This document shows, piece after piece, positions 20,544 to 58,406 of a DNA stretch of 64,000 nucleotides. The stretch is from a virus. The position numbers and the translations under genes were made by a program. The notes below the pieces were generated by a model. That model was not told the origin of the DNA and did no database searches. It saw only the letters and a program-made list of their open reading frames with translations. The stretch covers positions 32,001 to 96,000 of the IMG/VR virus record IMGVR_UViG_3300032236_001232, one strand, 5' to 3'. The stretch's first letter is position 1; each line of letters opens with the position of its first letter.

Positions 20544-20747
20544 TTAGTTAGGATAAGCATTAGGAGTTGTCTTACCGCCAAACGTGCTAGAAAAACTAAT
20601 TTGAGCATTAGCTGCCTTACCGCCATAATTGACACCTAGTGTGGCACTTAATTTAATGTTACTGCCGGCTGAATGAGCAACACCCGAGAATGCTGTATAA
20701 ACCTGTCCCATTACTATTGTTGCCCCTGTTGCCGGTAAAGTTGCCAT
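20544..20747 (-). CDS. Small fibre-associated protein (possible fibre-tip cap)
   Basis: 67 aa, MATLPATGATIVMGQV...ISFSSTFGG; begins 3 nt after the stop of the S74-containing fibre; AAGGA Shine-Dalgarno. Confidence 0.6.
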   Translation of the reverse strand: MATLPATGATIVMGQVYTAFSGVAHSAGSNIKLSATLGVNYGGKAANAQISFSSTFGGKTTPNAYPN

Positions 20748-20750
20748 TTT

Positions 20751-23700
20751 TTATTCCTTAGAAGTCAACGTATTTATTGCTTCTTTCAACTGAATAATTT
20801 GCTGTTGTTGTTCTTTAATAGCCTCTACAAGCAGTGGTATTAGTTTTTCGTATTGAATAGTTTGGTAATTTTCCCCTGATTTACTTCCACCTGCTCCATC
20901 ATCATCAAACGGTGCTGGACGAACCGCTTCTGGTAAGACTGCATCAACTTCATCTGCAAACAATCCTACCAGCTTCTTGGTTCTATCATAACCAAAAGAC
21001 TCAGCTGTAGCATTTGGTGTATATGTAATACCTGTTAATGATAACACCTTCACAACAGCATTGTCAATAGTTTGGACATTTTCCTTAAGGCGTCTATCTG
21101 AATAATATGCTGTGATTTCGCTACTAGCACGTATTTCGCCCGCAACTCCCGGAACGGCAGTTCCCGCGGATATTGCCCCACCAATTATAATATTCCCGCC
21201 AATACCCGCACCGCCTGCTACTTGCAGAGCACCTGTAATTGTTGATGTCGCCGCAGTAGTATTTGTTATTGTAAATTGTGTAGCTAACGGACTACCCGGG
21301 CCTTGTGGCCCTTGCGGACCGGTATTACCAGTTGGTCCTTGTGGCCCTTGAGCACCAGTAACACCTTGTGGACCTTGCGCTCCAGTAACACCTTGTGGTC
21401 CTTGTGGTCCTTGCGCTCCAGTATTACCAGTTGGCCCTTGTGGTCCTTGTGGTCCAACCGAACTGCTCCACGTAAATCCAGTTCCAGTCCATGCTAGATA
21501 TGTAGTAGCAGTAGTAGGTGCTGCTATAAATCCTGTGGCACCGACACCGGTTTGATAATGTAGTTGATTTGCTGCACCGCCTGCTATGTTAGTAGCAGTA
21601 GTAGAAGTTCCTGTTAGATTTCCAATAAAGGTAGTTGCAGTTACTACACCGCCGACAAATAACCCGCCACCGATTCCAACACCACCTATTACCTGTAATG
21701 CCCCGGTATTGGTGCTAGTAACGCCAGTAGTAGCAGTAACTACCACTTTGGTAATGGTAGCGGTATTGCCAGTTAGATTACCTACGTTACTGATATCGCC
21801 GCCGGTCATATCAATGTCGCTACCACCAGCACCGGCAATATATAATGTGCCGCCTACATATAAATCTTTACCAACTGCTAATCCACCTGCTACCTGTAGC
21901 GCACCAGTTAGTGTAGATGTGGCATTAGTTACACCCGGTACAATGATATTTGTAGCTGTAAGTGTAGTGCCGTTATAAGTTAATCCGCTACTAAATGCAG
22001 TAGTTCCAGTTGATGTTTGATAAGGAATTTGATCTTTAATACCACCGGCAATATTTGTAGCATTGGTTGCAGTTGTTGCAGTTCCAGTTACAGAACCGGT
22101 AAAGTTACCAACAAATGTAGTAGCAGTTACTACACCGCCGACATACAGACCACCACCGATGCCAACTCCACCGACTACAGTTAGTGCGCCAGTTTGAGTA
22201 GTGGCAGACCCTGTTGAATTGGTAAGAATAATATTACCGGTTCTAAATGTACCATATGTAGCACTAGTGAATACACTGCTGGTGCTTTCTGCGCCTGCAC
22301 TATACCAATTTAAATATTTGTTGGTATTATCTATTACTAGTGCGGCATTTGTATCCGTTGAATTCGCAAAATAATGGAACCTAAAACCAACGTCTTTTCC
22401 GTCATCTACATTCCATTTTCCATATACCCCACTAGGAGGTACGTGAACTTCTATTAGGTTATCAGTGTAATATGTGTTACTACTTAATACATTGGTAGCA
22501 GTACCATTGAAAGTTACCTGGCCACTGAATGTAGTATCGCCGGTAACTAAAAGTGTACCGCCAATGCCGACGTTATTAACTAGATAACTATCACCGGTTA
22601 CACCTAATCCACCGCCGGTTATTACTAAACTTTGTCCACCGGTAGCACTGGCACTGCCTGTTCCACTGGTTGCTTGAACTTGTGTTACATAAGTAGGGGC
22701 ACTAGCACCTGCTGTTAATAATGATTTTTGTGTTCCGCTTAATGCTAGGAAAGCTGTGGTATTAGCGGCACTTTGATAAGGTAAACTACCGGCAGAACCA
22801 GCTAGTAAATTAGCAGCATAACCAACCTGTAATGTACTGGTGTTGGTAATATTAGATCCTGCTATGCTACCTACAAAAGTTGTAGCAGTGACTATTCCGC
22901 CGACATATAATCCACCTGCTACCCCAACACCGCCGGCAATTTGCAATACACCAGTATTTGTGCTGTATGCTCCGGTAGTAGCAGTGATAATAAACTTAGT
23001 AATAGTAGCTGTATTTGCAGTTAGATTACCAATATTACTAATATCGCCGCCGGTCATATCAATGTCGCTACCACCAGCACCAGCAATATAAAGTGTTCCA
23101 CCTACGTATAAATCTTTACCAACTGCCAATCCTCCTGCTACTTGAATTGCACCAGTAGTGGTTGATACTGCATTAGTTGTGCCATTAACAATTAAATTAG
23201 TAGCAGTAATAGTTGCACCAACAAATAATCCGCCGCCAACTCCGACTCCGCCAACTACCTGTAAAGCACCCGTGTTGGTCGAGCTTGTAGGAGTTGTATT
23301 GGTAATTGTCGTGGCATTAACTACTGCTCCGCCAGTAAATGAACTTCCACTACTGGTACTCACTGCATAACCATTAACATAGACATTGGTTGCTGTAATT
23401 ACACCGCCGACATATAATGCACCACCGACACCAATACCACCGTTAACAACCAGTGCACCTGTAGTAGTCGATACTGATGTAGCGGTATCATATACTATAA
23501 CTTGTGTAGCTGTGGAGAATAAAACATCACCTGTTCCGTCAGGATCAATTAATAGATTAGCATTTGACCCTACTGGATATGTTGTAATATTAAGAGTAGT
23601 TATATTACCGACGTGATTTGTAGCGGTAACAGTGCCACCGACAAACAAGTTACCACCGACACCAACTCCACCGGCTACTTGTAATGCTCCGGTAACTGTC

Positions 23701-26690
23701 GATGATACATTAGTTGTACCAGGAACTACAATGTTAGTAGCGGTAAATGTTGTACCATTGAATGTTAACCCACTACCGAATGTAGTAATGCCCGCAGCAC
23801 TTTGATATGGAATTTGATTTGTGCCACCACCGATAATGTTATTGGCATTTACAGCACTATTAACATAAACACTTGAGGTGTTAGTAAATGCCGGAGCCGA
23901 TCCACTTCCTTGACTGACCAATAACCACCCAGCAGTTCCTTGTGCTAAAAACGCGGTGGTATTAGGAGCACTTTGATATACCAATGAGCCGTTTGCAACG
24001 CCATTACCTAATAAATTGGCTGCATAACCAACTTGTTGAGTTGAGGTATTACCGGAATTTAAAATATTAGCTACAGCAGCATTACCGACATACATACTAC
24101 CTGTGCTAATGAAAGCAGTAGAACCTGCACCTGTTTGATAAGCAAATTGATTAGCGCTACCACCTGCTAAATTAACAGCAGTTGTCATCAATGTAGATGT
24201 TGTTAGCGTAACTGTGGCTACATTAGCAGCAACACTAGCACTGAGACCTGTATTGAAATTAATAGTAGCAGCGGTTCCCTGACTTATTCCAAGACTCTGA
24301 ATGGTTAACGAACTGGCTGTACTAACTGCATAACCGTTAACATAGATATTGGTAGCAGTTACTACACCGCCGACATATAAACCTCCACTGATACCGACAC
24401 CGCCGGCTACAGTGAGTGCCCCGGTATTTGTGCTAGTAACACCAATTGTAGAACTGATATTGGTTGTGGTGAATGTTCCTGTATTAGCAGATATTCTACC
24501 AACTCCAAACATATCGCCACCCCCCATATCGAGGTCACCGCCTGCCGAACCAGCAATAGTTAATGTTCCACCAATATATAAATCTTTACCAACTGCTAAT
24601 CCTCCCGCTACCTGCAATGCTCCTGTGGTAGTCGATGTAGCATTAGTTGTACCAGGAACAATGATATTGGTAGCGGTTATTGTATTACCGACATATAAAC
24701 CACCGCCGATACCAACACCACCGGTTACCTGTAAAGCACCGGTATTAGTTGAGATAGCAGCAGTGCTACCTGTTAGTGTTAGTGTATTTTGATATACAGG
24801 GGATCCTGTACCACCGCTAACTAAAATTTGTCCTGCTGTACCTGGTCCGACAAATCCAGTTGTGCCAGGGGCTGTTTGATATACTATTTGTCCTGCTGTA
24901 CCATTTAATATATTTGTAGCAGTAATTCCACCGGGTAAACTTGCTGCTGCCGCTATCGATGATCCTAATGTCGAAGTAGTAACTACTTGTGACCCGGAAG
25001 CCAATATTGAAGTCCCAGATGACTTAACTGCAACTGAGCCGATATATAGAGTTCCGCTGGTTACATAAACATCTCTAAAGGGGTTAGCAAGTGATCCTAA
25101 ATCTACAGAGGAGTTCCCTGGCATAATGGAACCGCCTACATATAAACTTCCACCTATTCCAACTCCCCCAATTACCTGTAAGGCACCAGTTGCAGTGCTA
25201 GATGATACAGTGTTATTACTAACCGATATAGAAGCAAATGTTACCGAGCTGGTTGTATATAAATCTTGGTCGGTTCTACTCGGGCCCTGCGGTCCTTGAG
25301 CTCCGGTATTACCAGTTGGTCCCTGTGGCCCGGTTACTCCCTGCGGTCCTTGTGCCCCTGTGTTACCAGTTGGACCCTGCGGTCCTTGAGCACCGGTATT
25401 ACCAGTTGGGCCTTGTGGTCCCGTAACTCCTTGTGGTCCTTGCGCTCCGGTATTACCAGTTGGTCCTTGAGGTCCTTGAGCACCGGTGTTACCTGTAACT
25501 CCCTGCGGTCCTTGTGGTCCCGTAACTCCTTGTGGTCCTTGAGCACCTGTGTTGCCTTGAGGTCCTTGTGGTCCCGTAACTCCCTGTGGACCTTGTGGTC
25601 CTGTAACTCCTTGCGGTCCTTGAGCACCAGTATCACCAGTTGGTCCTTGTGGTCCCTGAGCACCGGTGTTTCCTTGTGGCCCTTGTGGCCCGGTTACTCC
25701 TTGTGGTCCTTGAGCTCCGGTATTACCAGTCGGTCCCTGTGGCCCGGTTACTCCCTGAGGTCCTTGTGGTCCCTGAGCACCGGTGTTTCCTTGTGGCCCT
25801 TGTGGCCCTGTTACTCCTTGTGGTCCTTGAGCCCCGGTGTTACCTGTAACTCCCTGCGGTCCTTGTGGTCCCGTAACTCCTTGTGGCCCTTGCGGACCTG
25901 TTACCCCTTGCGGTCCTTGTGGGCCCGTTGGGCCAACTGCACTAACCAATTGTCCGTTGGTATAGATATTACCGGCATATATAGATCCACCAATACCAAC
26001 ACCGCCTGCAATAATTAATGCACCAGTAGTAGTAGAACTAGCAGCAGTATTATTAGTTGTTTGTATAATATCATCTGTTTTAACCAGCGTAGTGGTAACA
26101 GTAGTATACTGAATTGTTAATTTTTGAGCGACAATTTCGCCGCCGATATATAAATTGCCCCCAATGCCGACTCCGCCGGTTACAATTAAAGCACCTGTAG
26201 TAGTAGAACTGGCTTGAGTGTTTAATGTGAGCGTAGCCGTCGATCCAATAGTAAGGCCGGTGCTGGCATTAAACTTGTTAATTGTTGTAGATTCTAGCCC
26301 TACATATGATCCGTCAACAACATCTGCTAGTGTAAAATATCTATCACCCGGAGTTAAGGTATTAACTTGAATATTATCTGCATTGGTGCTAGATCCAGCA
26401 CTAATACTCCCTAAATTAGACCACGAAGCTGTGCTTCCGTCACTAGTTAATACGGTATTGGCACCACCGATAGGTATAAAACCAGTGGTCCCCGGGGCTG
26501 TTTGATAAGGAATACTGCCAGATGTTCCACCTGCTAGGTTAGTGGCGGTATTAGCAGTGTTTGCTGTTCCTGAGCCCGACCCCGATCCTGAGCTAGTCCG
26601 AGTCCACGAGTTTGTGCTAGTGGAATATGTATAGGTAATACCGTTTAGGGTAGTAGTTTGACCATTGGTTGCCGGTGCTGGAAAAGACAA
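20751..26690 (-). CDS. Long tail fibre with collagen-like segments and a C-terminal intramolecular chaperone (peptidase S74)
   Basis: TTG start with AAGGA Shine-Dalgarno; Gly-X-Y runs; repeated TGALQVxGGVGIGG units; C-terminal [10 protein letters not shown]...LVEAIKEQQ. Confidence 0.88.
21295..21455 (-). repeat. Short collagen-like Gly-X-Y repeat
   Basis: [15 protein letters not shown] triplets. Confidence 0.9.
25281..25935 (-). repeat. Long collagen-like Gly-X-Y repeat (roughly 70 triplets)
   Basis: Uninterrupted [18 protein letters not shown] triplets; 9-nt periodic DNA. Confidence 0.95.
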
Positions 26691-27129: not shown

Positions 27130-27164
27130 AAAAAATCCTTTTAAAATATTACAATATTTATTGT

Positions 27165-28240: not shown

Positions 28241-28249
28241 GATTATTCC

Positions 28250-32192: not shown

Positions 32193-32195
32193 AAG

Positions 32196-33893: not shown

Positions 33894-33896
33894 CTA

Positions 33897-34823: not shown

Positions 34824-34832
34824 TGATCACCG

Positions 34833-44200: not shown

Positions 44201-46756
44201 TGTATTGGCCGCACTTTGATATGCAATTTGTCCCTGCGAACCAGCTAACACATTAGCGGCAAATCCAACTTGTTGTGTGCTAGTGTTACCTGCATTTAGA
44301 ATGTTAGCTACGGCGGCATTACCTACGTAGATACTTCCTGTACTGGTATATGTAGGAGCACTGGTTCCGGCACTGACTAAAATCTGACCTGTTGTTCCTG
44401 GTCCAACAAATCCTGTTACACCCGGACTGCTTTGATATGTTAACTGACCAGCTGTGCCACCACGCAATGTTTCGGCATTGACTGCGCTATTAACATAGAT
44501 ACTGCCTGTGCTAGTATATGTAGGAGCACTGGCACCGGCACTGACTAACAGTTGTCCTGCTGTTCCTGGCCCGACAAATCCAGTTGTGTCTGTTGCACTT
44601 TGATAAACTATTTGTCCTGCTGTTCCGCCGACAATATTATTGGCCTTTGAGGCTGTTCCTGAGAACGCACCAATAAATGTCGTAGCTGTTACGGTACCGC
44701 CTACAACCAATCCTCCGCCGATACCAACACCACCGGCTACTCTAAGAGCACCAGTTTGTGTATTAAGAACTCCTTCTGTGCTTTTTAGAAATACTCTACC
44801 AGTTTGGAATGTACCATAGGTTGCAGTGTTAAAGGTACCGCCTGTTCCTTCAGCACCAGTTTCGTACCATTCTAGATATTTGCTGTCATTAGCTAGCACT
44901 AGTGCAGCATTGTTGTCTGCCCCCGCATAATAATGGAAACGGAATCCAATATCCTTACCATCATCAACTGACCACTGTCCGTATACTCCGGTAGGAGGAA
45001 CGTGCATTTCGATAATGTTGTCTGTATAGTATGTGTTAGTACTAAGGTTATAAGTTGCTGTACCGTTAAATGTAACAGTTCCACGGAATGTTGTATCACC
45101 ACCGACTACTAAGGTTTTATCAACCCAAGCACCGCCTGCTACATATAATGAGTTGCTAGTATTTGTACCTGTATCAGCACTAGTGCTACCAGCAATTAAA
45201 GAACCTGCAGTTTTTAATCCAGCGCTGAAATAGCTATCACCTGTTACACCAAGTCCGCCACTGGTAATTGTAACGCTTTGATTTGCTACACCGGTTGCAC
45301 TGGCTGTACCACCACTAAATGTGCTGGTGCTTTGCCATACTAGTGTATTGCCCGTTCCATAAACTAAATGTTGCTGAGCCGCTCCGCCTGCTAAGAAAGT
45401 AGTAACTCCTGCTGCACTTTGATATGGTAAACTTCCAGCGCTGCCTCCACGCAATGTTTCAGCGTTAACAGCACTATTAACATAGATACTGCCAGTAGTA
45501 GTAAATGCCGGAGCAGAACCTGCACCTTGACTAACCAACAACCAACCAGCAGTTCCTTGTGCTAAGAAAGCAGTGGTGTTGGCAGCACTTTGATATACCA
45601 ATGCGCCGTTTCCTGCTCCATTGCCCAGTAAATTAGCAGCATAACCAACTTGTTGTGTACTGGTGTTACCTGGATTAAGGATGTTGGCAATAGCAGCATT
45701 GCCAACATACATACTGGCAGTGCTAGTAAAGCTAGGAGCGCCATTTGTAGTAGCTTGTAGGAATTGTCCAGTTGTTCCGCTGTTTGCAAAAGCTGTTGCT
45801 CCTGCAGCAGTTTGATAATGAATTTGTCCCTGTGAACCGCCTGCTAAATTAACAGCAGTTGTCATTAGGGTAGATGTTGTTAGTGTAACTGTGGCTACAT
45901 TAGCAGAAACACTGGCGCTAAGACCTGTGCTAAAGTTAATAGTACCAGCATTACCTTGGCCAACTCCAAGACTTTGAATAGCTAATGCACTAGCGGTGCT
46001 AACAGCATATGGTCCAACGAATAAATTAGTAGCAGTGATCACTCCGCCGACATACATTCCACCGCCTACGCCAACACCACCAGCTACCTGTAATGCGCCA
46101 GTATTTGTGCTAGTAACACCAATTGTAGAACTAATATTGGTAGTAGTAAATGTACCAGTATTGGCTGTGATTCTGCCAACTCCGAGAATATCACCACCGC
46201 CCATATCAATATCGCCGCCCGAAGAACCAGCAATAGTTAATGTTCCGCCAATGTATAGGTCTTTACCAACGGCTAATCCGCCAGCTACTTGCAATGCTCC
46301 GGTAACTGTCGATGTAGCATTAGTTACACCAGGAACAATAATATTAGTAGCAGTAAATGTAGTACCGTCAAATGTTAATCCACTGTTAAACGTAGTGATA
46401 CCTACTGCGCTTTGATAAGGAATCTGGTTCTTTAAACCACCTGCTATATTGGTAGCAGTATTGGCAGTAGCAGCCGATACGTTGCCACCAAGTGTACCAT
46501 TAAATGTACCATATATTGCTGTTGCTGTTAAAGCACCACCAATATACATTCCGCCGCCGACTCCAACTCCGCCTATGACTTGTAAGGCTCCTGTTGTGGT
46601 ATTAGCAACTCCTGTATTGTTGGTAATGCTGAGATAAGTTGTAGATGTAACTTGTCCAGCAACTCTGGTCCATGCGGTAGTTGAAGTGCTGTAGGAGTAG
46701 GTTATTCCATTAACTACTGCGGTTTGTCCATTTGCGGGCGACGTTGGAAATGACAT
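41213..46756 (-). CDS. Long tail fibre protein with GQxxYQ(S/T)AxxTTAF repeats
   Basis: 1847 aa, rich in Gly, Thr, Ser and Ala; more than 15 YQ(S/T)A repeats; N-terminal MSFPTSPANGQ; C-terminal VGDIWYN module; no S74 domain. Confidence 0.85.
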   Translation of the reverse strand: MSFPTSPANGQTAVVNGITYSYSTSTTAWTRVAGQVTSTTYLSITNNTGVANTTTGALQVIGGVGVGGGMYIGGALTATAIYGTFNGTLGGNVSAATANTATNIAGGLKNQIPYQSAVGITTFNSGLTFDGTTFTATNIIVPGVTNATSTVTGALQVAGGLAVGKDLYIGGTLTIAGSSGGDIDMGGGDILGVGRITANTGTFTTTNISSTIGVTSTNTGALQVAGGVGVGGGMYVGGVITATNLFVGPYAVSTASALAIQSLGVGQGNAGTINFSTGLSASVSANVATVTLTTSTLMTTAVNLAGGSQGQIHYQTAAGATAFANSGTTGQFLQATTNGAPSFTSTASMYVGNAAIANILNPGNTSTQQVGYAANLLGNGAGNGALVYQSAANTTAFLAQGTAGWLLVSQGAGSAPAFTTTGSIYVNSAVNAETLRGGSAGSLPYQSAAGVTTFLAGGAAQQHLVYGTGNTLVWQSTSTFSGGTASATGVANQSVTITSGGLGVTGDSYFSAGLKTAGSLIAGSTSADTGTNTSNSLYVAGGAWVDKTLVVGGDTTFRGTVTFNGTATYNLSTNTYYTDNIIEMHVPPTGVYGQWSVDDGKDIGFRFHYYAGADNNAALVLANDSKYLEWYETGAEGTGGTFNTATYGTFQTGRVFLKSTEGVLNTQTGALRVAGGVGIGGGLVVGGTVTATTFIGAFSGTASKANNIVGGTAGQIVYQSATDTTGFVGPGTAGQLLVSAGASAPTYTSTGSIYVNSAVNAETLRGGTAGQLTYQSSPGVTGFVGPGTTGQILVSAGTSAPTYTSTGSIYVGNAAVANILNAGNTSTQQVGFAANVLAGSQGQIAYQSAANTTAFVNSGTTGQFLQATTNGAPAFTSTGSMYVNSAVYAEEIRGGTAGQLLYQSAPSTTDYVGPGTAGQILVSGGAAIPVYTSTGSIYVNSAVNSNNIIGGAKDQIPYQSAAGATTFGSGLTFNGTTFTATNIVVPGTTNATSTVTGALQVAGGIGVGGNVISSGYGKFTGAYDEVASTTTVALYLGVAGSTPASPRIGFANSGTTWQIDNYNGNFRWYTPFGTKMQIDINGNLSVYSNTSTNSTTTGALVVTGGVGVGGGMYVGGVVTATNFFVGPYAVSTASALAIQSLGVGQGNAGTINFSTGLSASVSSNVATVTLTTSTLMTTAVNLAGGSANQFAYQTAAGATAFASTASMYVGNAVNSQNLLGGTTGQFAYQSAANTTAFVSTGSMYVNGAVSAQNLFGGTTGQFAYQTAAGATAFASTGSMYVGNAAVANILNPGNTSTQQVGFAKNLLGNGAGNGALVYQSAPDTTAFLAQGTAGWLLVSQGAGSAPAFTTTGSIYVNSAVNANNIIGGATNQIPYQSAAGATTFGSGLTYNGTTLATGNVSVTGNTNASSTTTGAFQVVGGAGIGGNLFVGGSAYLAGDLYVDGTSFTVNSNSIATGDKTLTLSTGSGSAALAAGSGLQIGTTSTPYASWLYDGSAYWVSAGSNAGGIKVSATTGVTSTNTGALVVVGGAGFGGNLFVGGVVTATSFVGALAGTAALATTATNLAGGTANQFAYQTAPGTTAFASTASMYVGNAVNSQNLLGGTTGQFAYQSAANTTAFVSTGSMYVNGAVSAQNLFGGTTGQFAYQTAAGATAFVSTSSMYVDSSVKSNNIIGGSAGSLPYQTGASTTAFLAGGTAQQHLVYGTGNAPVWQSTSTFSGGTASSSTVASQSVNITGGGLGVTGASYFSTDVGMGGELNVAGHIVGGGVRSSSTSTVPANATVGDIWYNTSNDTMYRYTNDGTTSYWVDINGPAIANGSAAYMTLAAFKAVVAASSSFLDFQSRVAAL

Positions 46757-46821: not shown

Positions 46822-49800
46822 TCATTCCGATTGATACCCTTTCTTTAACATTTCGATTTCTTGTTTAAGTTCTTTAATAGCCTCTATAAGCAGTGGCACT
46901 ATTTTTTCATACTGAATAGTTTGATAGTTTTCTCCAGATTTACTTCCACCTGCTCCGTCATCGTCGAACGGTGCTGGACGAACTGCTTCGGGCAATACTG
47001 CTTTAACCTCATCTGCAAATAGTCCTACTAATTTTTTATTTTTATCATATCCAAATGATTCTGCTAAGTCGTTTGGCGTATATGTAATACCATTCAATGA
47101 AAGAACTTTAACCACAGCATTATCGATTATTTGAACATTTTCTTTTAGTCTACGGTCTGAATAGTATGCTGTGACTTCATTAGTAGCACGAATTTCACCA
47201 CCTGTGCCGCTCGGAACCGTTCCTACTCCAAGGCTGAGAATTTGTGCTCCGCTATCACTAGTAGTAGTTCTTGCAATTCCATTAGTGCGAACTTCAAAAG
47301 TTCTTCCAGTGCCACCAGGGTTGTCAATATATCCACCCAGACCCGAAGCATTACTCCATATTTGAACAGCACTTGCTCCTGCTTGTATTAATTTTAGAAA
47401 GGCTCCGGACCCGCCCGAAGAATTAACTGTAACACCTCCACTTCCGTTCGGGGAGTCATTAACAAATAATGTGTTTGCAGTTGTACTATAGGAAAGATTG
47501 CCACTTAATGCTGTTGCATTTTGTCCTGTAATAGTAACACCGACTGGATAAAAAGTATAAGCAGAGGTATTGGTAGCATTAATAACATTGCTTGGTCCAG
47601 AAGCACCGCTAGGTCCTTGCGGTCCTTGAGCTCCAGTATTACCAGTTGGTCCTTGCGGACCTTGTGCTCCAGTATTACCTTGGACTCCTTGTGGTCCTTG
47701 TGGTCCTTGAGCGCCAGTATTGCCTTGCGGTCCTTGTGGTCCTTGTGCGCCAGTATTACCAGTTGGTCCTTGTGGACCTTGAGCACCAGTATTGCCTTGC
47801 GGTCCTTGTGGTCCTTGTGCGCCAGTATTACCAGTTGGTCCTTGTGGTCCTTGTGCGCCAGTATTACCAGTTGGTCCTTGTGGACCAGTTACTCCCTGTG
47901 GTCCCTGTGGTCCCTGGGCACCAGTATTGCCTTGCGGTCCTTGCGGTCCTTGAGCACCAGTGTTACCAGTCGGTCCTTGTGGACCGGTGACTCCTTGTGG
48001 TCCTTGAGCGCCAGTATTGCCTGTTGGTCCCTGTGGTCCTTGAGCGCCAGTATTGCCTGTTGGTCCCTGTGGACCGGTGACTCCTTGTGGGCCTTGAGCA
48101 CCGGTGTTGCCAGTCGGTCCTTGTGGACCTTGTGCGCCAGTATTACCAGTCGGTCCTTGCGGTCCTTGAGCACCTGTGTTACCAGTTACTCCCTGTGGTC
48201 CTTGTGCGCCAGTATTGCCAGTTGGTCCCTGTGGTCCCTGTGCTCCGGTATTACCAGTAGGCCCTTGCGGCCCTGTAACTCCTTGTGGGCCTTGTGCGCC
48301 AGTATTACCTTGCGGTCCAGTTGGACCAGTCGGTCCTACTGCACTAACTAATTGTCCATTGGTATAGATATTACCTGCATATATAGATCCGCCAATACCG
48401 ACTCCGCCTGCAACAATCAATGCCCCAGTTGTAGTAGAACTTGCGGCTGTATTATTAGTTGTTTGTATAACATCGTCAGTTTTAACTAACGTAGTAGTAA
48501 CAGTTGTATATTCTATAGTCAGCTTCTGAGCAACAATTTCTCCGCCAACATATAAATTTCCACCAACGCCAACTCCGCCTATTACTTGTAAGGCTCCTGT
48601 AGAGGTACTACTTGACGAAGTATTATTGCTAACTGATATTGCAGCAAATGTTACTGAGCTGGTAGTATATAGATCTTGATTTGTTCTACTAGGTCCTTGT
48701 GGCCCTGCGACTCCTTGCGGTCCTTGTGGTCCTGCGACTCCTTGCGGTCCTTGAGGTCCTTGTGCTCCGGTGTTACCTGTAACACCTTGCGGTCCTTGAG
48801 CACCAGTGTTACCTGTAACACCTTGCGGTCCTTGTGCGCCAGTATTACCAGTTGGTCCTTGTGGACCTTGAGCACCGGTATTGCCTTGAGGACCTTGTGG
48901 TCCAGTAACTCCTTGAGGTCCTTGTGCGCCAGTATTACCAGTCGGTCCTTGTGGTCCTTGTGCTCCAGTGTTACCCGTAACTCCTTGAGGTCCTTGTGCG
49001 CCAGTATTACCAGTTGGTCCTTGTGGTCCTTGGGCACCTGTATTGCCTTGTGGTCCCTGTGGACCGGTAACTCCTTGCGGCCCTTGAGCACCAGTATCTC
49101 CGGTCGGTCCTTGTGGACCTTGAGCACCGGTATTACCAGTTACACCTTGCGGTCCTTGTGGTCCCTGTGCTCCAGTATTACCAGTCGGCCCTTGTGGCCC
49201 AGTAACTCCTTGAGGTCCTTGTGCGCCAGTATTGCCTTGCGGTCCTTGTGGGCCTTGTGCTCCAGTATTACCAGTTACACCTTGCGGTCCCTGAGCACCA
49301 GTATTACCAGTAACTCCTTGTGGTCCTTGTGGTCCTTGAGCACCAGTATTACCAGTCGGTCCTTGTGGACCTGTAACTCCTTGTGGTCCTTGAGCACCGG
49401 TATCGCCTGTAACTCCTTGTGGGCCTTGTGCGCCAGTATTACCAGTTGGTCCTTGTGGGCCTTGTGCTCCAGTATTACCTGTCGGTCCTTGTGGTCCTGT
49501 AACTCCTTGTGGTCCTTGAGCACCGGTATCGCCTGTTGGTCCTTGTGGGCCAGCCGACCCTGCTGCTCCAATTAATTGTCCATTAGTGTAGATATTGCCA
49601 GCATATAAAGATCCGCCGATTCCTACACCCCCAATAACTTGTAGGGCTCCAGTTATTGTTGAACTAGCTTCAGCATTCCCTGTTACTAATAAATTCTCAG
49701 ATGAAACTTGATGATTCGTTGAATTGTATGTTAATACGGTATCCGCATCTAAAGGACTATAAGTTCCATCCTTAGTTTCGGTTAATGCTACATAATATGT

Positions 49801-51039
49801 ATTGCCTGGTTGAACGTTATTAACTAGAATATTGTCAGAATTGCTAGCACCACCTGCTGTTATTCCTGCTAGCATATCTGCTGTAAAGTTAACTACAGCA
49901 GGCCCGGTCATATCTATCCAATAGATTTCGCCGCTGCCATCATCAGTATATCTATATACAGCATCGTTTGTAGTGTTGTACCAAACATCGCCTACTGTGG
50001 GATTAATCGGTGCATTAGCAGCAGTTGTAGTCCTTACACCGCCACCTATAATTCTACCGCCTACATTTAAATTTCCGCTAATACCTACACCGCCTTCAAC
50101 TAGAACGGCTCCAGTATTTGTTCCTGTAGATTCTATGCCGCCGGTAACTTTAAGTCCCGGACCAGGTCCTGTATTGGCTAATATTGTAGATACCCCAACA
50201 GTTCCTGTGCTAGGACCACCCGGTGTAAGACTAAGTTGGAAGCGTGTAGGACTTAATACAGCAGGAACGTAATATGTTGTTCCAGAAACTAATCCAAGTC
50301 CCGATGTTTGAGGAACTACAACCTCGCCGCCGCTAAAAGCGTGAACGCTATCTGTTAAAAAGCTAACGCCATTAAAACTTAATATAGTTACAGTGGCACT
50401 GGATCCGTTAATGCTGACACTACCACCTACACTAACGTTGTTAGTTATTCTTGCACTACCTGTTAGTATACCACCGCTAATGGATAGTTTAGCAACAGAA
50501 AGTGTTTGACTGCCGGCGTCGTATGTTAATGACGAATCAGCATCCAAAGGACTATAATTTCCATCCTTGAGCTCACTTAATGTCACATAGTAACTAGTAG
50601 TAGAAAAAGTATCTACATTGTTGATTTGAACATTGTCGGCATTAATACTACCGCCGACTGGTCCGGAAATGTTATTCCCGCCTATGGTACCAAATATTGT
50701 ACCACCTACATATACATCGCCGCCAATACCTACTCCGCCTGCTACTGTCAATGCACCAGTATCGGTACTGGTACTGCTAGAAGTATTGAGTATTATAATC
50801 GAATAGGTAGTAGTATTACCCGAGTGTGTAACAGTTTGAAGGGTGGAAGTTGTTAGAACAGCACCGCCTCTGGTATATACTGTCCCACCTACCCAAAGAT
50901 CTTTAACAACAGATGCTCCACCAGCAACGTGAAGCGCACCAGACGAGGTGTCGATAGAATTAGTTGTTGATTCAACTGTGGCAGTTGTTGAGACCACCAG
51001 ACCATTTTTGACTACAAAGTCAATATTATTCAGAGCCAT
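46822..51039 (-). CDS. Collagen-rich tail fibre with a C-terminal S74 chaperone
   Basis: Two long Gly-X-Y runs; N-terminal DFVVKNGL; C-terminal [10 protein letters not shown]...LIEAIKEL. Confidence 0.88.
47595..48335 (-). repeat. Collagen-like Gly-X-Y repeat (roughly 80 triplets)
   Basis: [12 protein letters not shown] periodicity. Confidence 0.95.
48690..49560 (-). repeat. Collagen-like Gly-X-Y repeat (roughly 95 triplets)
   Basis: [15 protein letters not shown] triplets. Confidence 0.95.
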
Positions 51040-51143: not shown

Positions 51144-51159
51144 GCCTAGCTATGCTATA

Positions 51160-54100
51160 TTAACAATAGTTTTCAATACTGGTTATGATACTTTGACGAA
51201 CCACTTGAATATTCATACTACTTGTAGAATAGTTAGGAGTAAATGTTATTTCAACATTTCCACTAACGATACTACCGCTAAATGTCCCAAGCTCGCCTAG
51301 AGTAGTTATAATACCGTACTCACTCATATAAACATTGGTACCATCTTGGATGACCATGATTTCTTGAGTGTGTATCTTACCACCGTTGTCAGTAAGTTGA
51401 ACCATGTATTTGGCACTGGTATAAGTACCGCTATCCCAGCTGTCAATAACCTCTGTCCAGCTTCCGTTAAGTCCGGTATAGCTTCCACCACTCTGCATGC
51501 TGTTGACAATGAACACACCGTCGATTGGCTTGCCGTCTGGGCTTTCACCACCAACATCACCGCCGTTGTTCATACCAGCGTAGAGCACACCGCCTACTGC
51601 AACATCGCCTAGTGCTTTAATAGCACCACGGACTCCTAACGATTGACTTGTTTGATCAAGATCCTTACCGTACACATCGACACTGTTATCGGTACTAGTA
51701 ATAGTTAACGATGTAGCAGTAAAGGTACCGGTAATATCGACATTATTAAGTGTCGCAGTACCAGTCGATATGATGTCCATAAACTGACTGCTTGTGCTGG
51801 ACAGTTTCTTTCCACCTAAGTAGATATCATTGGCAATGTAAACACTGCCGTTAAATGTAGCAGTTGTTCCAACATACAAGTCTTTCTGTATGCTAGCACC
51901 ACCTTGTGTGTTAAAAGAAACATAGTCGGCAGTATTAGCTAGGCTAGGATTATCATTGTTAATCCAAACCATTCTACCAAAGTAAGCACCACCGTTTGGT
52001 ATGTTCAACGCTGCGTCAGGATAACCATACCCACCTTCTGTACCATCGACTAGTAAAGTAGCAGTTTCAACAAATGTCGCTGTTACATTGTTAGCAAAGA
52101 TTGTACCAGTTGAATGAACATCAGCAAATGTACCTGTGCTACCAGTAATCTGGTCAACACCATCTAGGCTATTACCCTGGACATACAGCGTGCCTTGAAC
52201 ATACAAGTCTGCGTTAATATAAGCATTTTGATCAACATATAAACCACCAGCAATACTTGCTCCACCAACTACTTGTAGGGCACCTGTTGCTGTTGTATTG
52301 GTTGAACTAGCTGCTGTTCCTTTAATAATGACACTGTTATTAACTGTTAGTGTGTTATTAAATGTTGTAGTACGAGTTAGCTCTTTAGTAGCCGAGTTAT
52401 AAACTACTAGAGTTGTAGCTGTACTATCATCACGCAGGGAATCTACATAGAACTTACCAGTGTCGTCGTAAACTTTAGTACCGTTTGGCAATGCTAGTTT
52501 ACCATCGATGCCATAAACCCACTCATTGCCAGCTTCACTGGTTTTGATTAGAACCTGTGACTGAGCATCAAGCACCAAGTCTCTAGCACCGCCGCCAAGA
52601 GCAACACTGTTCTCTTCACGTAGATTTGCAGTGCTATCAAACTCAACCCGACCAGTAGTTGATGTGAATACCAAGTTGCCACCGACACCCACCGACAATC
52701 CAACATTAACACCACCGTTTGGTACATCTAGTGCTGCGGTTACTGGACCATCATTATAGTTAGCATTGGAATCAATGTAGATAGCTTTCTTAGAATAGAT
52801 ACCACCGTTTGGAATCATCAACGCTGCATCGTTTGCATAACTGTAACCACCTTCTGTACCATCAATAGTGATAGTATTAGCACCAGTGATATTACCACCA
52901 GTCATAGTGATGTCGCCGCCGGTTCCGCCAGTGACTTCAAGCGCACCGCTAACTGATAGTGTAGCGCTACCACTGTTGTAGGTTAAACCGCTGTCGTCGA
53001 CTAGGTTAAGATCGTTATCAGTGAATACAACACGACCACTGGTTAAGTTTTGTGGACGAACATATGGTGCCTGGAAGTATTTGCTGCCACCATCATTGAA
53101 CACCAAGTTACCACTAGTGTTTAGTGTTAAGGTGATACCATCTGCTTCCATGTGTGCGCCGGCGGTGTTTACCCAAATAAAAGCATCGTTGTTATAGTTT
53201 AGTTGAGCATAGTAATCACTATATAATTCAATGCTTTGACCACTATCGGCAGCCAATACATTATCAGCCTCACCATCTTTACCAGTGCTATCGTTGGTAT
53301 AAAGGTTAACGGTATTAACTTTGAAAGAATAGTTATCACCATCATACTGTAGATAGCTGGTTGCTGTGGTTATATCATTGTCTTTCTGATACAAGACACT
53401 CCACTGTGGACCAACAACGTTGGTTGCTGTAGTAGCACGACCGACTGAAGTTCCCGAAGCACTTTGCCAAGTAGCTGTAGTACCACCGTTATCCCAAGTT
53501 AAAACTTGATGATCAGCTGTTCCAGCAGGAATAAATGTTGTCTCACCGCTGGCTGTTTGAATTGGAATCTGTCCATTCAAACCACGATTTAAGTTATCTG
53601 CTTTTGTAGCAGTACCATATAACTTGTTATGTGTACCTGTTTCGTCTTGTAGATAGATATCACCAGCAATGCCAACACCACCAGCAATAATCAGTGCGCC
53701 AGTTCCGGTATTAGATGATGGAGTAGTATTAACCAGTTCAATAGCACCAGTCTTAAATGTGCCATATGTTGTGCCAGTAAATACACCACCTGCTGTTTCA
53801 GTTCCGTCACTATACCACTCTAAATAACTGCTGTCGTTAGCAAACCCTAAGAATGCGTTTTTGTCAGCACCTTTGTAGTAGTGGAAAATAAAACCAATGT
53901 CTTTACCATCATCTGTACCCCAGGCGTGATTGTTTAAATCACCACCGTTTGGTGTGTGCATGTTGATGATATTGTCTGTATAGACTGTGTTGGTAGAATA
54001 TACATAAGTTGCTGTACCATTAAATGTTACACTGCCACGGAATGTTGTATCCCCAGCAACAACTAGTGTCTTGTCAACCCAAGCACCGCCGTCAACGTAG

Positions 54101-55467
54101 AATGCGTTAGAAGTTTTAGTTCCTGTATTTGCAGCAGCACTCTTAACAATCAAGTTGTCGCCGATGTAAACACCGCCTGCTACTTTTAGTGCAGCATCGC
54201 CGCCGCCTGAATCTGTAGCAGTTTGTGTGCTGTCGATGATTGCTCGCTTGTTAACATAAAGTCCACCGCTGGATAGATTTAATGCTGGGTAACTGCCATT
54301 GGCATCATTTGTGCTGGCTATTACTACGTTAAGACCAAAATTAGCGCCGCCATTTGGAACATTTAGCGCACCGATACCTGTATCACCGCCTTCGGTACCA
54401 TCGATAAGCACATTTTTGGCAACGTAAATACCACCTTGGCCAACATGTAATGATGCTGAACTACTTGTTGCATCATTGGTTGTAGAACCACCAATGTAAA
54501 CATCTTGATCAACATAAGCACCTCCAGAGGCTACTCTTAATGCTCCGCCACCGGCTGTTGAACCGTTAGTTGTGCTGTCAATCTGTAGATCTTTATTGAT
54601 GTAAGCACCACCTTGATCTAACTTTAGAGCAGGTTCGGCATCTCCAGCAGCACCACTAGAATGAATAAACACATTCTCATGGATGTATGCACCACCGTTT
54701 GTAAGTACTAATGCACCAGCAGGAGTACCACTGGCATGAGTAGTACCGTCAATTTTTAAATCGTTGTAAATGTAAGCACCACCGGCACTGACATTTAGGG
54801 CTGGGTGAGCATCGGCTGCATCGCCGGTGTCGCTTAATTTAACACCACCGTTACTAACACCTTTGATTTCTAATGCAGCAGTGGAAGTAGCATTAGCAAG
54901 ATGAGTTAATTTTAAGACACCGCTGTTATCAAAAACCAATTCATTTAAATTTGAACCGTTGTTGTTTGTCTGGAAAATAACACCATCAGTTCCGTTTACA
55001 GTAACCTCAGCATAGGCGTTACCGGGACCGTATAACCCAGCATTATAAATCAAACTTGAAGCAGCGTCGGAGCTGACTTTTGTACTACGACCGGAAACAG
55101 CCTTAACTGTTAAATCATATCCGGTGTTTAATCCAGTAATACCTTCGTTACCGTCAATAACGATATTGCTGACTGTGCTAACACCGTCAACTACTAATGT
55201 ACCAGCAGCATATGTATTGCCTGTTGCGGCTTGAATAGTGAAATTACCATTGTTAACATCGACATTGCCGGCAACAGTTAATGTGCTTTTTAGAACGCTA
55301 GGACCAAAAACAGTAGCACTGCTTCCGATCAATATGTCCTTAGCGAACGCGGCGCCACCATTCACTTGTAGCGTGCCGGTGTTGCCAGTTGATGTAGATA
55401 CCGGGTTAGTCGTTCCTTGAACGATTAAACCAGATTTTACAATAAAATCTTTAGAAAGTAGTGCCAT
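51160..55467 (-). CDS. Long fibre protein
   Basis: 1435 aa; repeated ALxVxxGGAYI units; N-terminal DFIVKSGL; C-terminal IDSW...SAKY...EY domain. Confidence 0.8.
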   Translation of the reverse strand: MALLSKDFIVKSGLIVQGTTNPVSTSTGNTGTLQVNGGAAFAKDILIGSSATVFGPSVLKSTLTVAGNVDVNNGNFTIQAATGNTYAAGTLVVDGVSTVSNIVIDGNEGITGLNTGYDLTVKAVSGRSTKVSSDAASSLIYNAGLYGPGNAYAEVTVNGTDGVIFQTNNNGSNLNELVFDNSGVLKLTHLANATSTAALEIKGVSNGGVKLSDTGDAADAHPALNVSAGGAYIYNDLKIDGTTHASGTPAGALVLTNGGAYIHENVFIHSSGAAGDAEPALKLDQGGAYINKDLQIDSTTNGSTAGGGALRVASGGAYVDQDVYIGGSTTNDATSSSASLHVGQGGIYVAKNVLIDGTEGGDTGIGALNVPNGGANFGLNVVIASTNDANGSYPALNLSSGGLYVNKRAIIDSTQTATDSGGGDAALKVAGGVYIGDNLIVKSAAANTGTKTSNAFYVDGGAWVDKTLVVAGDTTFRGSVTFNGTATYVYSTNTVYTDNIINMHTPNGGDLNNHAWGTDDGKDIGFIFHYYKGADKNAFLGFANDSSYLEWYSDGTETAGGVFTGTTYGTFKTGAIELVNTTPSSNTGTGALIIAGGVGIAGDIYLQDETGTHNKLYGTATKADNLNRGLNGQIPIQTASGETTFIPAGTADHQVLTWDNGGTTATWQSASGTSVGRATTATNVVGPQWSVLYQKDNDITTATSYLQYDGDNYSFKVNTVNLYTNDSTGKDGEADNVLAADSGQSIELYSDYYAQLNYNNDAFIWVNTAGAHMEADGITLTLNTSGNLVFNDGGSKYFQAPYVRPQNLTSGRVVFTDNDLNLVDDSGLTYNSGSATLSVSGALEVTGGTGGDITMTGGNITGANTITIDGTEGGYSYANDAALMIPNGGIYSKKAIYIDSNANYNDGPVTAALDVPNGGVNVGLSVGVGGNLVFTSTTGRVEFDSTANLREENSVALGGGARDLVLDAQSQVLIKTSEAGNEWVYGIDGKLALPNGTKVYDDTGKFYVDSLRDDSTATTLVVYNSATKELTRTTTFNNTLTVNNSVIIKGTAASSTNTTATGALQVVGGASIAGGLYVDQNAYINADLYVQGTLYVQGNSLDGVDQITGSTGTFADVHSTGTIFANNVTATFVETATLLVDGTEGGYGYPDAALNIPNGGAYFGRMVWINNDNPSLANTADYVSFNTQGGASIQKDLYVGTTATFNGSVYIANDIYLGGKKLSSTSSQFMDIISTGTATLNNVDITGTFTATSLTITSTDNSVDVYGKDLDQTSQSLGVRGAIKALGDVAVGGVLYAGMNNGGDVGGESPDGKPIDGVFIVNSMQSGGSYTGLNGSWTEVIDSWDSGTYTSAKYMVQLTDNGGKIHTQEIMVIQDGTNVYMSEYGIITTLGELGTFSGSIVSGNVEITFTPNYSTSSMNIQVVRQSIITSIENYC

Positions 55468-55492
55468 TTTTTAAATTTCCTTTAGTTATAGT

Positions 55493-56272
55493 CTATGAGG
55501 CTAATCCTGTCCTCAACACTTTAATATTTTTAGCAGTTGGATAGTAAGGTGTAAAATACAATCTCACTATTTCGTCCATTTGAACGTCTGCTTCAAACTC
55601 CCCCATCTCCCCATTTGTAGTTAATACAGCATATTCTGTTGCATATACCGTACCTACATTATCCACCAACAACAGTATTTCGATGGTCTGAAAGTCTGCT
55701 GTGGGTCCATCCCCTTCGTCTATTTGTATTAGATACTTGGCTGACCTAAATTGGTCAACTGAATAAGAATCTATTACTACAGTTCCAGTCGTATTTACCA
55801 ACATTACCGTAGAATCAAACACTGCATCCATGATTTTGACCGATTCTGAAGTCAATCTTCCTTCCACCCAAATATCCCCACCTACACCTATCCCGCCTTC
55901 TACTAACAACGCTCCTGTAGTTGTGCTAGTAGATTCGGTAGTGTTTAAAATTATTATTTGGTTGGTGGTGGTGTTGCCAACATCAGTTACTCTCTGTAGG
56001 TTAGGTGCCGGGGCATATTGACCAATAGTAGCTGTAGTGACAATTTCAGCACCATTAATAGTGCTGGTTGTCCCGGCGTTAATTGCTCCGCCTACTCCGA
56101 CACCACCGGCGACTACCAATGCTCCTGTGGTTGTGCTAGTAGACTGTGCGCTGCCACCTACAGATAATGGACTAGTCTTGATCCAAGCATATCCGTTCCA
56201 TACCCATGTGTTAGACCCAATAGTCCAAGTATCTCCAACATTAGGATTAGGAGGAAAATTTAATTCTGACAT
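55493..56272 (-). CDS. Short fibre adaptor protein
   Basis: N-terminal LNFPPNPNVGD...WNGYAW; TGALVVAGGVG units; C-terminal IDSY...SAKY...EY domain. Confidence 0.75.
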   Translation of the reverse strand: MSELNFPPNPNVGDTWTIGSNTWVWNGYAWIKTSPLSVGGSAQSTSTTTGALVVAGGVGVGGAINAGTTSTINGAEIVTTATIGQYAPAPNLQRVTDVGNTTTNQIIILNTTESTSTTTGALLVEGGIGVGGDIWVEGRLTSESVKIMDAVFDSTVMLVNTTGTVVIDSYSVDQFRSAKYLIQIDEGDGPTADFQTIEILLLVDNVGTVYATEYAVLTTNGEMGEFEADVQMDEIVRLYFTPYYPTAKNIKVLRTGLAS

Positions 56273-56300
56273 ATTTCTACTCTTTGTTCGTTAATCATTT

Positions 56301-58406
56301 TTATATTGCCGATGTAAATTGTATCCAGAACGTGCTAGTTCCGTCTTTAATATATTGTAGTTCAACCCCAAAATTAGGATCAATCCAAAAATCCCCAACT
56401 CTTGGACCCGGCGGCGGTGATGTTGATATCGTTACCCTCGGGGTATATAGTAAATTATTTTCATATGCATTACCGTCCATACTATAAATGCTACCAGGGA
56501 CATTTAATGTGCTAGTTCCAGTAACAAAATAAGTGCTTGTGGATTTGTCAGTTGTAATATATGTTAATGCACTATCGCTGTCTATTGGGCTATAATCCCC
56601 AATTAGTTCACTTAATCCTAGATAGTATGTTTGTAAAGGGACAGTATCATTAATAAACACATTGTCACTATTGGTAGCAGTAGATGCTAGACCGGCAGAT
56701 AATGAAGAAAAATCTTGCCAGGTTGCAGTGCTACCATTGCTGGTTAATACTTTATTGTTACCACCGATAGGAATAAATCCAGTAACCCCGTCGGCAGTTT
56801 GATACGGTATACTACCTAGCGCTCCGCCTGCTAAATTAGTTGCAGTAGTAATGGTACCTGTAATCAAATATCTTACATTCATTCCATTGTAGAATGTGGC
56901 CATTCCGGTGACCATTAAATCACCTTTAATTCCAGTCCCGCCAAACACAGTTAGAGCACCATATGGACTTAGACTGTTTATTTTACCACCACTAACGTAA
57001 GTTCCAAACCCAGTTCCATTAACGGGTTGGGTTAATGCTTCATCATAATAGATACTGAATGTAGTAGTTCCTAAGTAACTAGCCCAATAAATTTGATCAT
57101 TTAATTCGGTAGTTCCTACTATTTCTGTTAATACAACTTCTGTTCCTGTGCTAATTTCGTAAGTGCTGTCAATATGAACTACAACTGGATTGGTTTTATC
57201 AATTCCTAATATGTCAGTTAGATATATTGTGGCGCTTACCTCAGTCCCTAACCCAATACCGGTATTACTGTTGAGTTGTAAATAACCGTTTCCATCGTAA
57301 TAGAACACGCTACCAATATTAACTTGGTTATCTAGCCCATTGACTAGGTTATCACCACCTATACTGATATTGGCGGTGCCTCGAGTTATGTTATTTCCAA
57401 CTTCGTGACCTAGGAATATATTGTAGCTACCTGTGGTTAAATTAACAGCAGTACGGTCTCCAACAAGTAAGTTTTGTTTACCATTAATAAGATTACGACC
57501 TGCGTCTGTTCCAATAGCAATATTGTCATCCCACACAGTATCAAGATATACTGTTCCGCTGTTTACGTAAGCAGTATATCCGCTACCGTTAACAGGAATG
57601 CTTAAATTAATATCCGAATACAGGGCAATTGATGATGGGCTTAATACATTAATGTAGTAATTGTTATTATTAAGCTGAGTTGTACCAATAATACCATCTA
57701 TGGTAACTAATGTTCCTGTGCTTAACCCATGTTGTGGAGCAGTAACTACTACAGCAGGTCCACCTAATGCAACATTAGTAACTGTTGCTGCTGTTAGTAA
57801 ATGATAAATTCCTAGATTTTTAAGAGCACTATCACCAATAGCAATGGAATTATTAATCTGTGTGCCCGAACTAAGAGCATAACGACCTACTGCAATACTT
57901 TTATAACTTGTTGAGAGTCCTGTTAATGCGTCGTAACCGATGACAATACTTTCTTGACCATTAAAATCATTATCTACTGTAGGGGTAGCAACACCCTGTA
58001 TAACAATATTATTAAGTCCTTGCCACCCTTGACCAATAGTTAATCCATTAACATGTATATCTTTTTCTGTCCATAGTGCATCACTAATCCCAACACCGCC
58101 TTTGATAATTAGCGCACCTGTGTTTGTGCTTGTGCTAGCTGTTCCACCGGCTACAATAACAACGCCGGTTCCGGTCCCTATCAATTTTATATCTTGATTA
58201 GCGATATTGCTGAATACATTACCTGAACTAAATTCTAAATTACCCAAGCTGGATCTATAACTGGTACGCAATAAGTTGTCGGTAACTAGCGTATAGCCAG
58301 TACTGGTAGTAGGAGTTGGTGGTAATTGGGGTTGCGCCCCTTTAAGATCAATAAATTGACCGCTTCCACCGCGTCTTAGAGTTGATCCGCTTAATAATGA
58401 TGGCAT
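56301..58406 (-). CDS. Fibre/virion structural protein with NxAIG repeats and two E1-FCCH-like beta domains
   Basis: PAVVVTAPQHGLSTGTLVTIDGIIGTTQLNNNNYYI and a second copy (NPVVV...STGTEVVLTEIVGTTELNDQIY); C-terminal VGDFW module. Confidence 0.7.
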   Translation of the reverse strand: MPSLLSGSTLRRGGSGQFIDLKGAQPQLPPTPTTSTGYTLVTDNLLRTSYRSSLGNLEFSSGNVFSNIANQDIKLIGTGTGVVIVAGGTASTSTNTGALIIKGGVGISDALWTEKDIHVNGLTIGQGWQGLNNIVIQGVATPTVDNDFNGQESIVIGYDALTGLSTSYKSIAVGRYALSSGTQINNSIAIGDSALKNLGIYHLLTAATVTNVALGGPAVVVTAPQHGLSTGTLVTIDGIIGTTQLNNNNYYINVLSPSSIALYSDINLSIPVNGSGYTAYVNSGTVYLDTVWDDNIAIGTDAGRNLINGKQNLLVGDRTAVNLTTGSYNIFLGHEVGNNITRGTANISIGGDNLVNGLDNQVNIGSVFYYDGNGYLQLNSNTGIGLGTEVSATIYLTDILGIDKTNPVVVHIDSTYEISTGTEVVLTEIVGTTELNDQIYWASYLGTTTFSIYYDEALTQPVNGTGFGTYVSGGKINSLSPYGALTVFGGTGIKGDLMVTGMATFYNGMNVRYLITGTITTATNLAGGALGSIPYQTADGVTGFIPIGGNNKVLTSNGSTATWQDFSSLSAGLASTATNSDNVFINDTVPLQTYYLGLSELIGDYSPIDSDSALTYITTDKSTSTYFVTGTSTLNVPGSIYSMDGNAYENNLLYTPRVTISTSPPPGPRVGDFWIDPNFGVELQYIKDGTSTFWIQFTSAI

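Follow-up and report, generated by a model that had tools for sequence, protein, structure and literature searches.

Matched end modules in consecutive fibre genes of an uncultured virus suggest a long tail fibre joined from separate segments

Results

A cluster of fibre genes with matched end modules

We analysed a stretch of 64,000 nucleotides, here called the window, from an uncultured virus (bases 32001-96000 of the 163,947-bp viral contig IMGVR_UViG_3300032236_001232; completeness 46% according to CheckV), and studied a group of tail fibre genes in it whose products carry recurring modules at their ends. The fibre genes are all encoded on the minus strand within 20751-63223. The tail is contractile, since the window carries a tail sheath gene (10246-13230) in addition to genes for tail tube proteins, a sheath stabiliser and a terminase, and the source is probably a giant phage, because the first protein of the group, P0001, is also present on another contig of 352,190 bp.

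Two short N-terminal motifs (plug a and plug b) and two partner domains (module A and socket B) recur among the fibre proteins P0001 to P0007, each in two subtypes (Table 1). Plug a comprises residues 1-33 of the products of the genes starting at 56272, 46756, 41152 and 26690; in P0007, an A replaces the second P of the motif. A first-pass annotation made from the sequence alone had described these elements as plugs and sockets, and by translation and profile searches all of the motifs that it listed were recovered where it had placed them. It had further pointed out that socket genes are collinear with plug genes, which stands: a matching plug gene directly follows five of the six socket genes, an arrangement for which gene-order permutation gives P(≥5) = 0.009 when the eight fibre genes only are shuffled and approximately 1e-4 when all 19 genes are. 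C-terminal matches to the S74 chaperone family (PF13884, cut-off 22) were obtained for P0004 (40.1 bits), P0006 (43.7), P0007 (38.6) and the protein encoded at 34833..39872 (32.7). S74 chaperones are confined to proteins without a C-terminal connector, in line with the annotation's view that they occupy what would be free tips.

Table 1 Fibre genes, end modules and related features. Locations without a prefix are window positions; other locations are given with the locus.
Feature	Location	Strand	Description
P0001, putative fibre segment 1	56301..58406	-	701 amino acids (aa); conserved N-terminus; two E1_FCCH-like barrels; ends in A1
Module A1 of P0001	56307..56438	-	aa 657-700, exact C-terminus; predicted three-strand beta-meander
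P0002, putative adaptor segment 2	55493..56272	-	259 aa; plug a1, two shaft repeats, gp9-like C-terminal domain
Plug a1 of P0002	56174..56272	-	aa 1-33
Socket B1 of P0002	55496..55834	-	aa 147-259; predicted T4 gp9 C-terminal domain fold
P0003, putative fibre segment 3	51160..55467	-	1435 aa; N-terminal plug b1, variable shaft, C-terminal socket B2
Plug b1 of P0003	55408..55467	-	aa 1-20, core DFxVKxGL
Socket B2 of P0003	51184..51528	-	~aa 1314-1428, coordinates approximate; paralogue of B1
P0004, putative fibre segment 4	46822..51039	-	1405 aa; plug b2, internal A2, two collagen runs, S74 chaperone
Plug b2 of P0004	50980..51039	-	aa 1-20
Module A2 of P0004	49900..50034	-	aa 336-380, internal
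Peptidase_S74 chaperone core of P0004	46978..47160	-	
P0005 fibre	41213..46756	-	1847 aa; N-terminal plug a2, A2 near the C-terminus, without S74 domain
Plug a2 of P0005	46658..46756	-	
Module A2 of P0005	41321..41452	-	35 aa before the C-terminus
P0006, putative small tip fibre	39947..41152	-	401 aa; plug a2 41054-41152, A2 in cis 40775-40909 (internal), S74 chaperone 40064-40219
P0007 fibre	20751..26690	-	1979 aa, TTG start; plug a2 26592-26690, collagen runs, S74 chaperone 20919-21101
Further end/start pair	L015:10860-15260 and 15505 onward		after the fourth protein
Further end/start pair	L024:11171-15337 and 15612 onward		in place of the B/b joint
59-60-aa A-ending protein	L036:2785-2964		short conserved N-terminal peptide and one A module
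59-60-aa A-ending protein	L037:368-550		short conserved N-terminal peptide and one A module
59-60-aa A-ending protein	L039:774-953		short conserved N-terminal peptide and one A module
Short fibres with weak A-like copies	G000:C1:136012-139956		451, 327 and 415 aa; beside baseplate genes

Gene order and termini are conserved in related viruses

For comparison, 22 viral loci with P0002 homologues were fetched. In at least 13 distinct loci (38-95% identity) the same order is found, namely a giant protein, a protein of ~130 aa, a P0001 homologue ending in A1, a P0002 homologue (a1 to B1), a P0003 homologue (b1 to B2) and a b2-starting protein with an unrelated distal part. Between module A1 and the stop codon there are 0-2 residues in 13 of 13 P0001 homologues, and plug a begins at residue 1-4 in all 28 matches from the window and its relatives. 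Identities over the N-terminus, middle and C-terminus amount to 64%, 38% and 53% in the first of the four families of the chain, to 50%, 34% and 58% in the second and to 60%, 29% and 45% in the third. In the fourth family (62%, 15% and 23%) the N-terminus alone is conserved, as would be expected if the chain ended in a host-specific tip. The subtypes co-vary within pairs (A1 with a1, A2 with a2), and the cognate subtypes of the second pair likewise stay together (B1 with b1, B2 with b2).

One relative (L024) has exchanged both halves of a joint: B is missing from its third protein and b from the gene after it, and another end/start pair stands in for the two. The earlier proposal that the termini behave as paired connectors, with an A-end before an a-start and a B-end before a b-start, is supported by this double exchange and by the junctions, which all of the related contigs retain. 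In this further pair the upstream protein ends in YNT.T.S.D.VF and the next gene starts with MAKL.(T/S)GTRIYGT, and it stands after different proteins in two lineages (Table 1).

The closest relative (L009) has a plug gene directly after each A. Its P0004 homologue is only 386 aa long and stops six residues past A2, and is followed by an a2 gene whose product ends near A2 and then by a third a2 gene; the chain of this relative would be linear. In the window, P0004 continues for 1,020 residues past A2. Since this extension resembles parts of P0007 and the homologue in the closest relative ends at A2, the A2 of P0004 probably became internal through fusion with a collagen/S74 fibre. P0005 and its homologue in the same relative have 35-38 aa after A2 (window 41213-41320), and P0001 homologues stop at the module.

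Upstream of the chain, the window encodes the giant protein, whose last ~40 aa are strongly conserved, and a conserved protein of ~126 aa (58419-63223). These two and the P0001 N-terminus (64% identity) are syntenic in every relative and probably represent further joints or the fibre anchor; the conserved N-terminus of P0001 may be a further joint to the upstream proteins.

Socket B resembles the C-terminal domain of T4 gp9

The Pfam family T4_gp9_10_C (PF23618) matched P0002 at residues 153-226 with 23.9 bits (E 5.5e-5), below its cut-off of 25, and is assigned to the homologue P0098 in a precomputed table; for P0003 there was no Pfam match to it. An AlphaFold2 model of P0002, based on 30 homologues, reached a predicted local distance difference test (pLDDT) score of 80-91 over residues 150-259. 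The top Foldseek match of this model was T4 gp9 (1QEX, E 1.3e-6), and VIA-align placed P0002 residues 147-259 on gp9 residues 169-284 (Z 13.8, root-mean-square deviation 2.1 Å, 109 residues). As modelled, socket B is an eight-strand beta-sandwich that folds like the C-terminal domain of T4 gp9, and the earlier statement that the modules are unlike those of gp10-type docking is not supported for this socket. The structural match is limited to gp9 residues 169-284, with residues 1-146 of P0002 consisting of plug a and shaft repeats. Domains of the gp10 type (XD2/XD3) were found neither in Pfam scans of P0001-P0007 nor among the structural matches of P0002, the only one of these proteins that was folded.

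Plug a and module A appear to be forms of a single small module

Plug a and module A have a pattern in common, P..P..G(D/Q)..aromatic..aromatic-x-aromatic..W, and a three-strand meander is predicted for each. For the plug of P0002, strands are predicted at residues 15-18, 21-25 and 30-32 (pLDDT 78-89), and for A1 at residues 82-85, 90-97 and 100-106 of the last 110 aa of P0001 (pLDDT 70-84). Their P..P..G(D/Q) cores align in hhalign (P = 6e-4, 21 columns, probability 29%), and with moderate confidence we take both to be versions of a single small module. Because the three a2 plugs hardly differ from one another, a2 plugs alone cannot specify an order, and the pairs are not orthogonal as the first-pass annotation had assumed. 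Between P0005 and P0006 the a2 plugs are ~85% identical as protein (read from the aligned N-termini) and 67% as DNA, and the upstream non-coding DNA is unrelated (25-37%); selection on the peptide is indicated, because the DNA of the plug is far more diverged than its protein.

When searched as isolated pieces, A1 and a1 matched no Pfam family. Below the gathering score of 27, DUF2793 (PF10983) matched A in P0139, a protein of another contig described below, with 26.1 bits (E 7.8e-6) and residues 1-135 of P0006 with 14.4 bits (E 0.035), the matches to A covering ~29 of the 87 profile positions, in the first third of the profile. A sequence search of the PDB with the A and a profiles gave marginal matches only, the best being residues 73-99 of the phiKZ inner-capsid protein gp184 (E 0.014), which is uninformative on docking. 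In a complex prediction that combined the C-terminal 110 aa of P0001 and the N-terminal 70 aa of P0002, at three copies each and with an alignment for each, the score was 0.75 in three of three runs, but one unrelated control reached 0.60, and we count this result neither way.

A wider census of plug a and its upstream neighbours

A profile of the plug, searched against 1.84 billion representative proteins, gave 8,057 matches at E ≤ 0.001, some of them noise; among the best 150, a complete plug stands at the extreme N-terminus of 110, and of the remaining 40, 31 are noise from Kelch-like repeats. Eight census proteins were looked up, with upstream DNA visible for seven, and in these seven the upstream gene always ends in A. 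It belongs to one of three unrelated families: P0001-like proteins (L035, L040, L041), a different fibre (L034) and proteins of 59-60 aa (Table 1). The latter, each located between a ~700-aa fibre gene and a plug-a gene, look from their composition like minimal stand-alone adaptors. Another census protein, P0337 (126 aa), opens with plug a (residue 1), closes with an A module and could be a minimal link connecting on both sides.

A degenerate DNA pattern for plug a1 retrieved 80 viral loci, in all of which the match lies in frame at the N-terminus of an open reading frame, with the conserved F at residue 3-6 in 76 cases. An A-ending gene (hidden Markov model E ≤ 1e-3) stands upstream in 31 of the 80 loci (27 of the 63 distinct ones), five more being A-like by pattern, and the gaps from the stop of the A-ending gene to the start of the plug gene measure 9-28 nucleotides (nt). 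In five long genomes lacking an A-ending upstream gene, four of them rated complete, A-like modules are present in the same fibre cluster (5/5).

Genomic context

Comparison with cultured phages gave no blastn match for window positions 55400-58500, and tblastn with P0002 matched solely the C-terminus of a fibre of Synechococcus phage S-SM2; hence that collection contains no close cultured relative of the clade. Public data include 775 homologues of P0002, none of which is named other than 'hypothetical protein'. Elsewhere in the window, a Cys-rich fibre with its own S74 chaperone and neither an a nor a b plug is encoded at 34833-39872, followed at 27386-34823 by glycosyl-, carbamoyl-, sulfo- and methyl-transferase genes, and a GIY-YIG homing endonuclease gene (17079-17588) lies between the neck and sheath-stabiliser genes.

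Discussion

With a probability of roughly 60%, we consider that these genes encode segments of one long fibre, joined head to tail in gene order by two types of joint. The segments would belong to a contractile-tailed giant phage, would each be made separately and presumably as a trimer, and would meet end-on along the threefold axis, the C-terminus of one segment on the N-terminus of its successor. At joint B, the gp9-like C-terminal beta-sandwich would hold the short DFxVKxGL peptide with which the next protein starts, in the way that T4 gp9 holds the gp34 N-terminus; at joint A, a C-terminal three-strand meander of ~40 aa would meet the shorter, related N-terminal meander of its successor. 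Segments with a free end would fold using S74 chaperones. The core chain would run from P0001 over P0002 and P0003 to P0004 and be ancestral to a large uncultured clade, with P0004 as the variable, host-facing end. This end is probably lengthened or substituted by P0005 and P0006 via A2/a2 joints, similar to the linear chain of the closest relative, and P0007 would perhaps be added in this manner too. From the matching end modules, gene order probably gives the order of joining. Beyond the motifs, their terminal positions, the fold of socket B, the conserved adjacency and the co-varying subtypes that we observed, we infer the physical contacts, the trimeric state, the anchoring site on the virion and any branching.

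Several observations weigh against such a serial chain. Much of the adjacency count is orthologous synteny and not a set of independent events, and about half of the 80 viral plug loci have no A-ending upstream gene, with fibre-chaperone-like genes among the neighbours. The P0007 plug in the window lacks a neighbouring A, the gene upstream of it being without the module, and of the four A sites there, two lie inside their proteins, a position that does not permit end-on docking. P0139 (946 aa) and P0140 (943 aa), both from a 365-kb contig (L033), start with plug a2 and carry A modules at even spacing, 7-9 in number, and an A-bearing gene precedes just two of the five plug genes on that contig. 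In another relative (L010), the P0004-type protein stops 44 aa past A2 and the next gene has no plug. For pair B, the first 18 residues of T4 gp34 align with plug b exactly at the N-terminus, albeit weakly (hhalign P = 0.003, probability 9%), so that this resemblance is a lead only. Moreover, the gp9-like fold alone proves no socket, because it also ends several Acinetobacter phage tailspikes and the S-SM2 fibre, whose next gene is without plug b. Much of this is what one would see if the proteins were simply built of generic fibre parts (an N-terminal cap, shaft repeats and a terminal beta-sandwich), with each fibre attaching alone to the virion or to a common adaptor, and with the pairing produced by clustering, orthologous synteny and duplication: A occurs as a tandem internal repeat, plug and A often adjoin in cis at one N-terminus (P0139, three proteins of the 365-kb contig, P0006), the tailspikes with the gp9-like fold have no known partner, and S-SM2 has B without b. 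We nevertheless judge generic parts to be an unlikely explanation, as A forms the exact C-terminus in at least five unrelated families of upstream proteins, with a plug gene 9-28 nt further on, some of these proteins being 59 aa with almost nothing else, and as L024 swaps both partners together. Likewise, the C-termini of the first three families are conserved and those of the fourth are not, which is expected of joints and not of free tips, and S74 is absent from exactly those proteins that have C-terminal connectors. Distinctly less probable still is that the conserved ends act mainly as DNA homology patches for the exchange of fibre cassettes by recombination, with docking not required. Breakpoints do lie right after A2, where three close relatives continue as a stop, a short tail or the 1020-aa extension, and the fibre genes are mosaic, with common segments at 72-86% identity. 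However, the divergence of the plug DNA relative to its protein, next to unrelated upstream non-coding DNA, speaks for selection on the peptide, and the modules are kept across lineages whose DNA no longer aligns. We thus regard this explanation as very improbable.

The fuller model of the first-pass annotation differs from the serial chain in its treatment of internal A modules. It had all six sockets, including the internal ones, bind plugs, so that eight proteins would form one branched fibre through orthogonal pairs with S74-processed free tips. The equal number of A modules and plugs in this genome (4/4) and the five collinear junctions agree with it, plug genes do come after the genes with an internal A (P0004, L010_16272 and L029_9992), and A-like modules share the gene cluster in all five of the further complete or near-complete plug-bearing genomes mentioned above. 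Yet a protein with 7-9 A modules would require an equal number of partners, and module A is also a repeated internal shaft element in proteins of this type (~945 aa, with plug a2; L033:10001-12832). The claim that plug count tracks socket count holds for strong A and a modules in this genome, in L009 (3/3) and in three other contigs (1/1 each), and breaks down in L010 (three A modules, two plugs) and in L033, where five plug genes within 15 kb face ten A modules in four proteins. Four A modules do lie at the sites that had been named, but the count left out three short fibres of the same genome, encoded outside the window, that each have two weaker tandem A-like copies after a shared N-terminal domain (Table 1). 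Adjacency, too, is conserved as gene order in related loci and fails as a strict rule, holding for two of the five plug genes in L033 and about 45% of the 80 viral loci. In the closest relative the A of P0004 is terminal and the chain linear, the internal position in the window looking like a recent fusion, and the near-identity of the three a2 plugs is at odds with orthogonal pairs. Taken together, internal A modules seem to be mainly shaft repeats and not demonstrated sockets, and the fully branched assembly appears improbable to us. Internal sockets, the 4 = 4 equality and branching are not established, because A is also a repeat, the counts differ in L033 and L009 is linear. In a more speculative version, which we hold to be similarly doubtful, A and a would be the halves of an undescribed general-purpose connector in many phage lineages, at times borne by separate 59-aa adaptor proteins, and the internal A modules lateral docking sites, with a multi-copy protein bearing several fibres that start with a plug, giving a programmable, tree-like or bottle-brush host-recognition organ.

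The docking principle itself is established from T4, from Ackermannviridae and G7C and from Klebsiella phages, and our gain is a parts list and a large testable data set, not a new principle. The long tail fibre of T4 joins the gp9 C-terminal domain coaxially, by way of the gp34 N-terminus (PMC3004832), and pair B would be a distant, relocated version of this known socket-fibre joint. As with gp9 and gp34-gp35-gp36-gp37 of T4, the segments proposed here would be made separately, encoded in assembly order and joined end to end, with a socket domain of the gp9 C-terminal fold; in T4, the next protein docks by its N-terminus. Unlike in T4, the gp9-like domain is found at the distal end of fibre segments, twice in series, and not on a baseplate protein, and P0002 is without the N-terminal coiled coil and the middle domain, which bind baseplate gp7 in T4. 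Furthermore, no gp35-like hinge protein was found here, and the A/a joint has no identifiable T4 counterpart. In the anchor-branch complexes (CBA120 TSP1-4, G7C gp66/gp63.1, the K1-5 adaptor and Klebsiella KP32/KP34/phiK64-1), a short conserved N-terminal peptide docks on a small beta-sandwich of another protein, with modular re-use of the parts (PMC6872550, PMC8825819, PMC13352976). The branched spikes of Ackermannviridae and G7C use gp10-like domains (PMC8825819), and in Klebsiella phages 'conserved peptides' dock on T4gp10-like domains (PMC6872550), a peptide docking that is reported to have been validated experimentally in 2026 (PMC13352976). These complexes differ from the arrangement described here, as theirs rely on gp10-type XD2/XD3 domains near the anchor N-terminus, with off-axis docking and branches, whereas the sockets here are C-terminal, of the gp9-C or A type, and the arrangement proposed is serial. 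DUF2793 proteins of alphaproteobacterial phage and gene transfer agents are annotated as tail fibres (PMC5026251); A resembles the first third of this family below the Pfam gathering score, and the family has no known docking role.

The present case differs in the proposed serial use of a C-terminal socket of the gp9-C type, in the small-meander connector, in the putative stand-alone mini-adaptors and in how large the uncultured clade is. Should the joints prove real, fibre segments would carry the T4 gp9 socket in series at their ends, in place of its site on the baseplate, and a small, widespread connector, neither half of which matches a Pfam family at or above threshold, would be added to the known parts. 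The architecture of very long multi-segment fibres would then be readable from the genomes of uncultured phages by gene order and end motifs.

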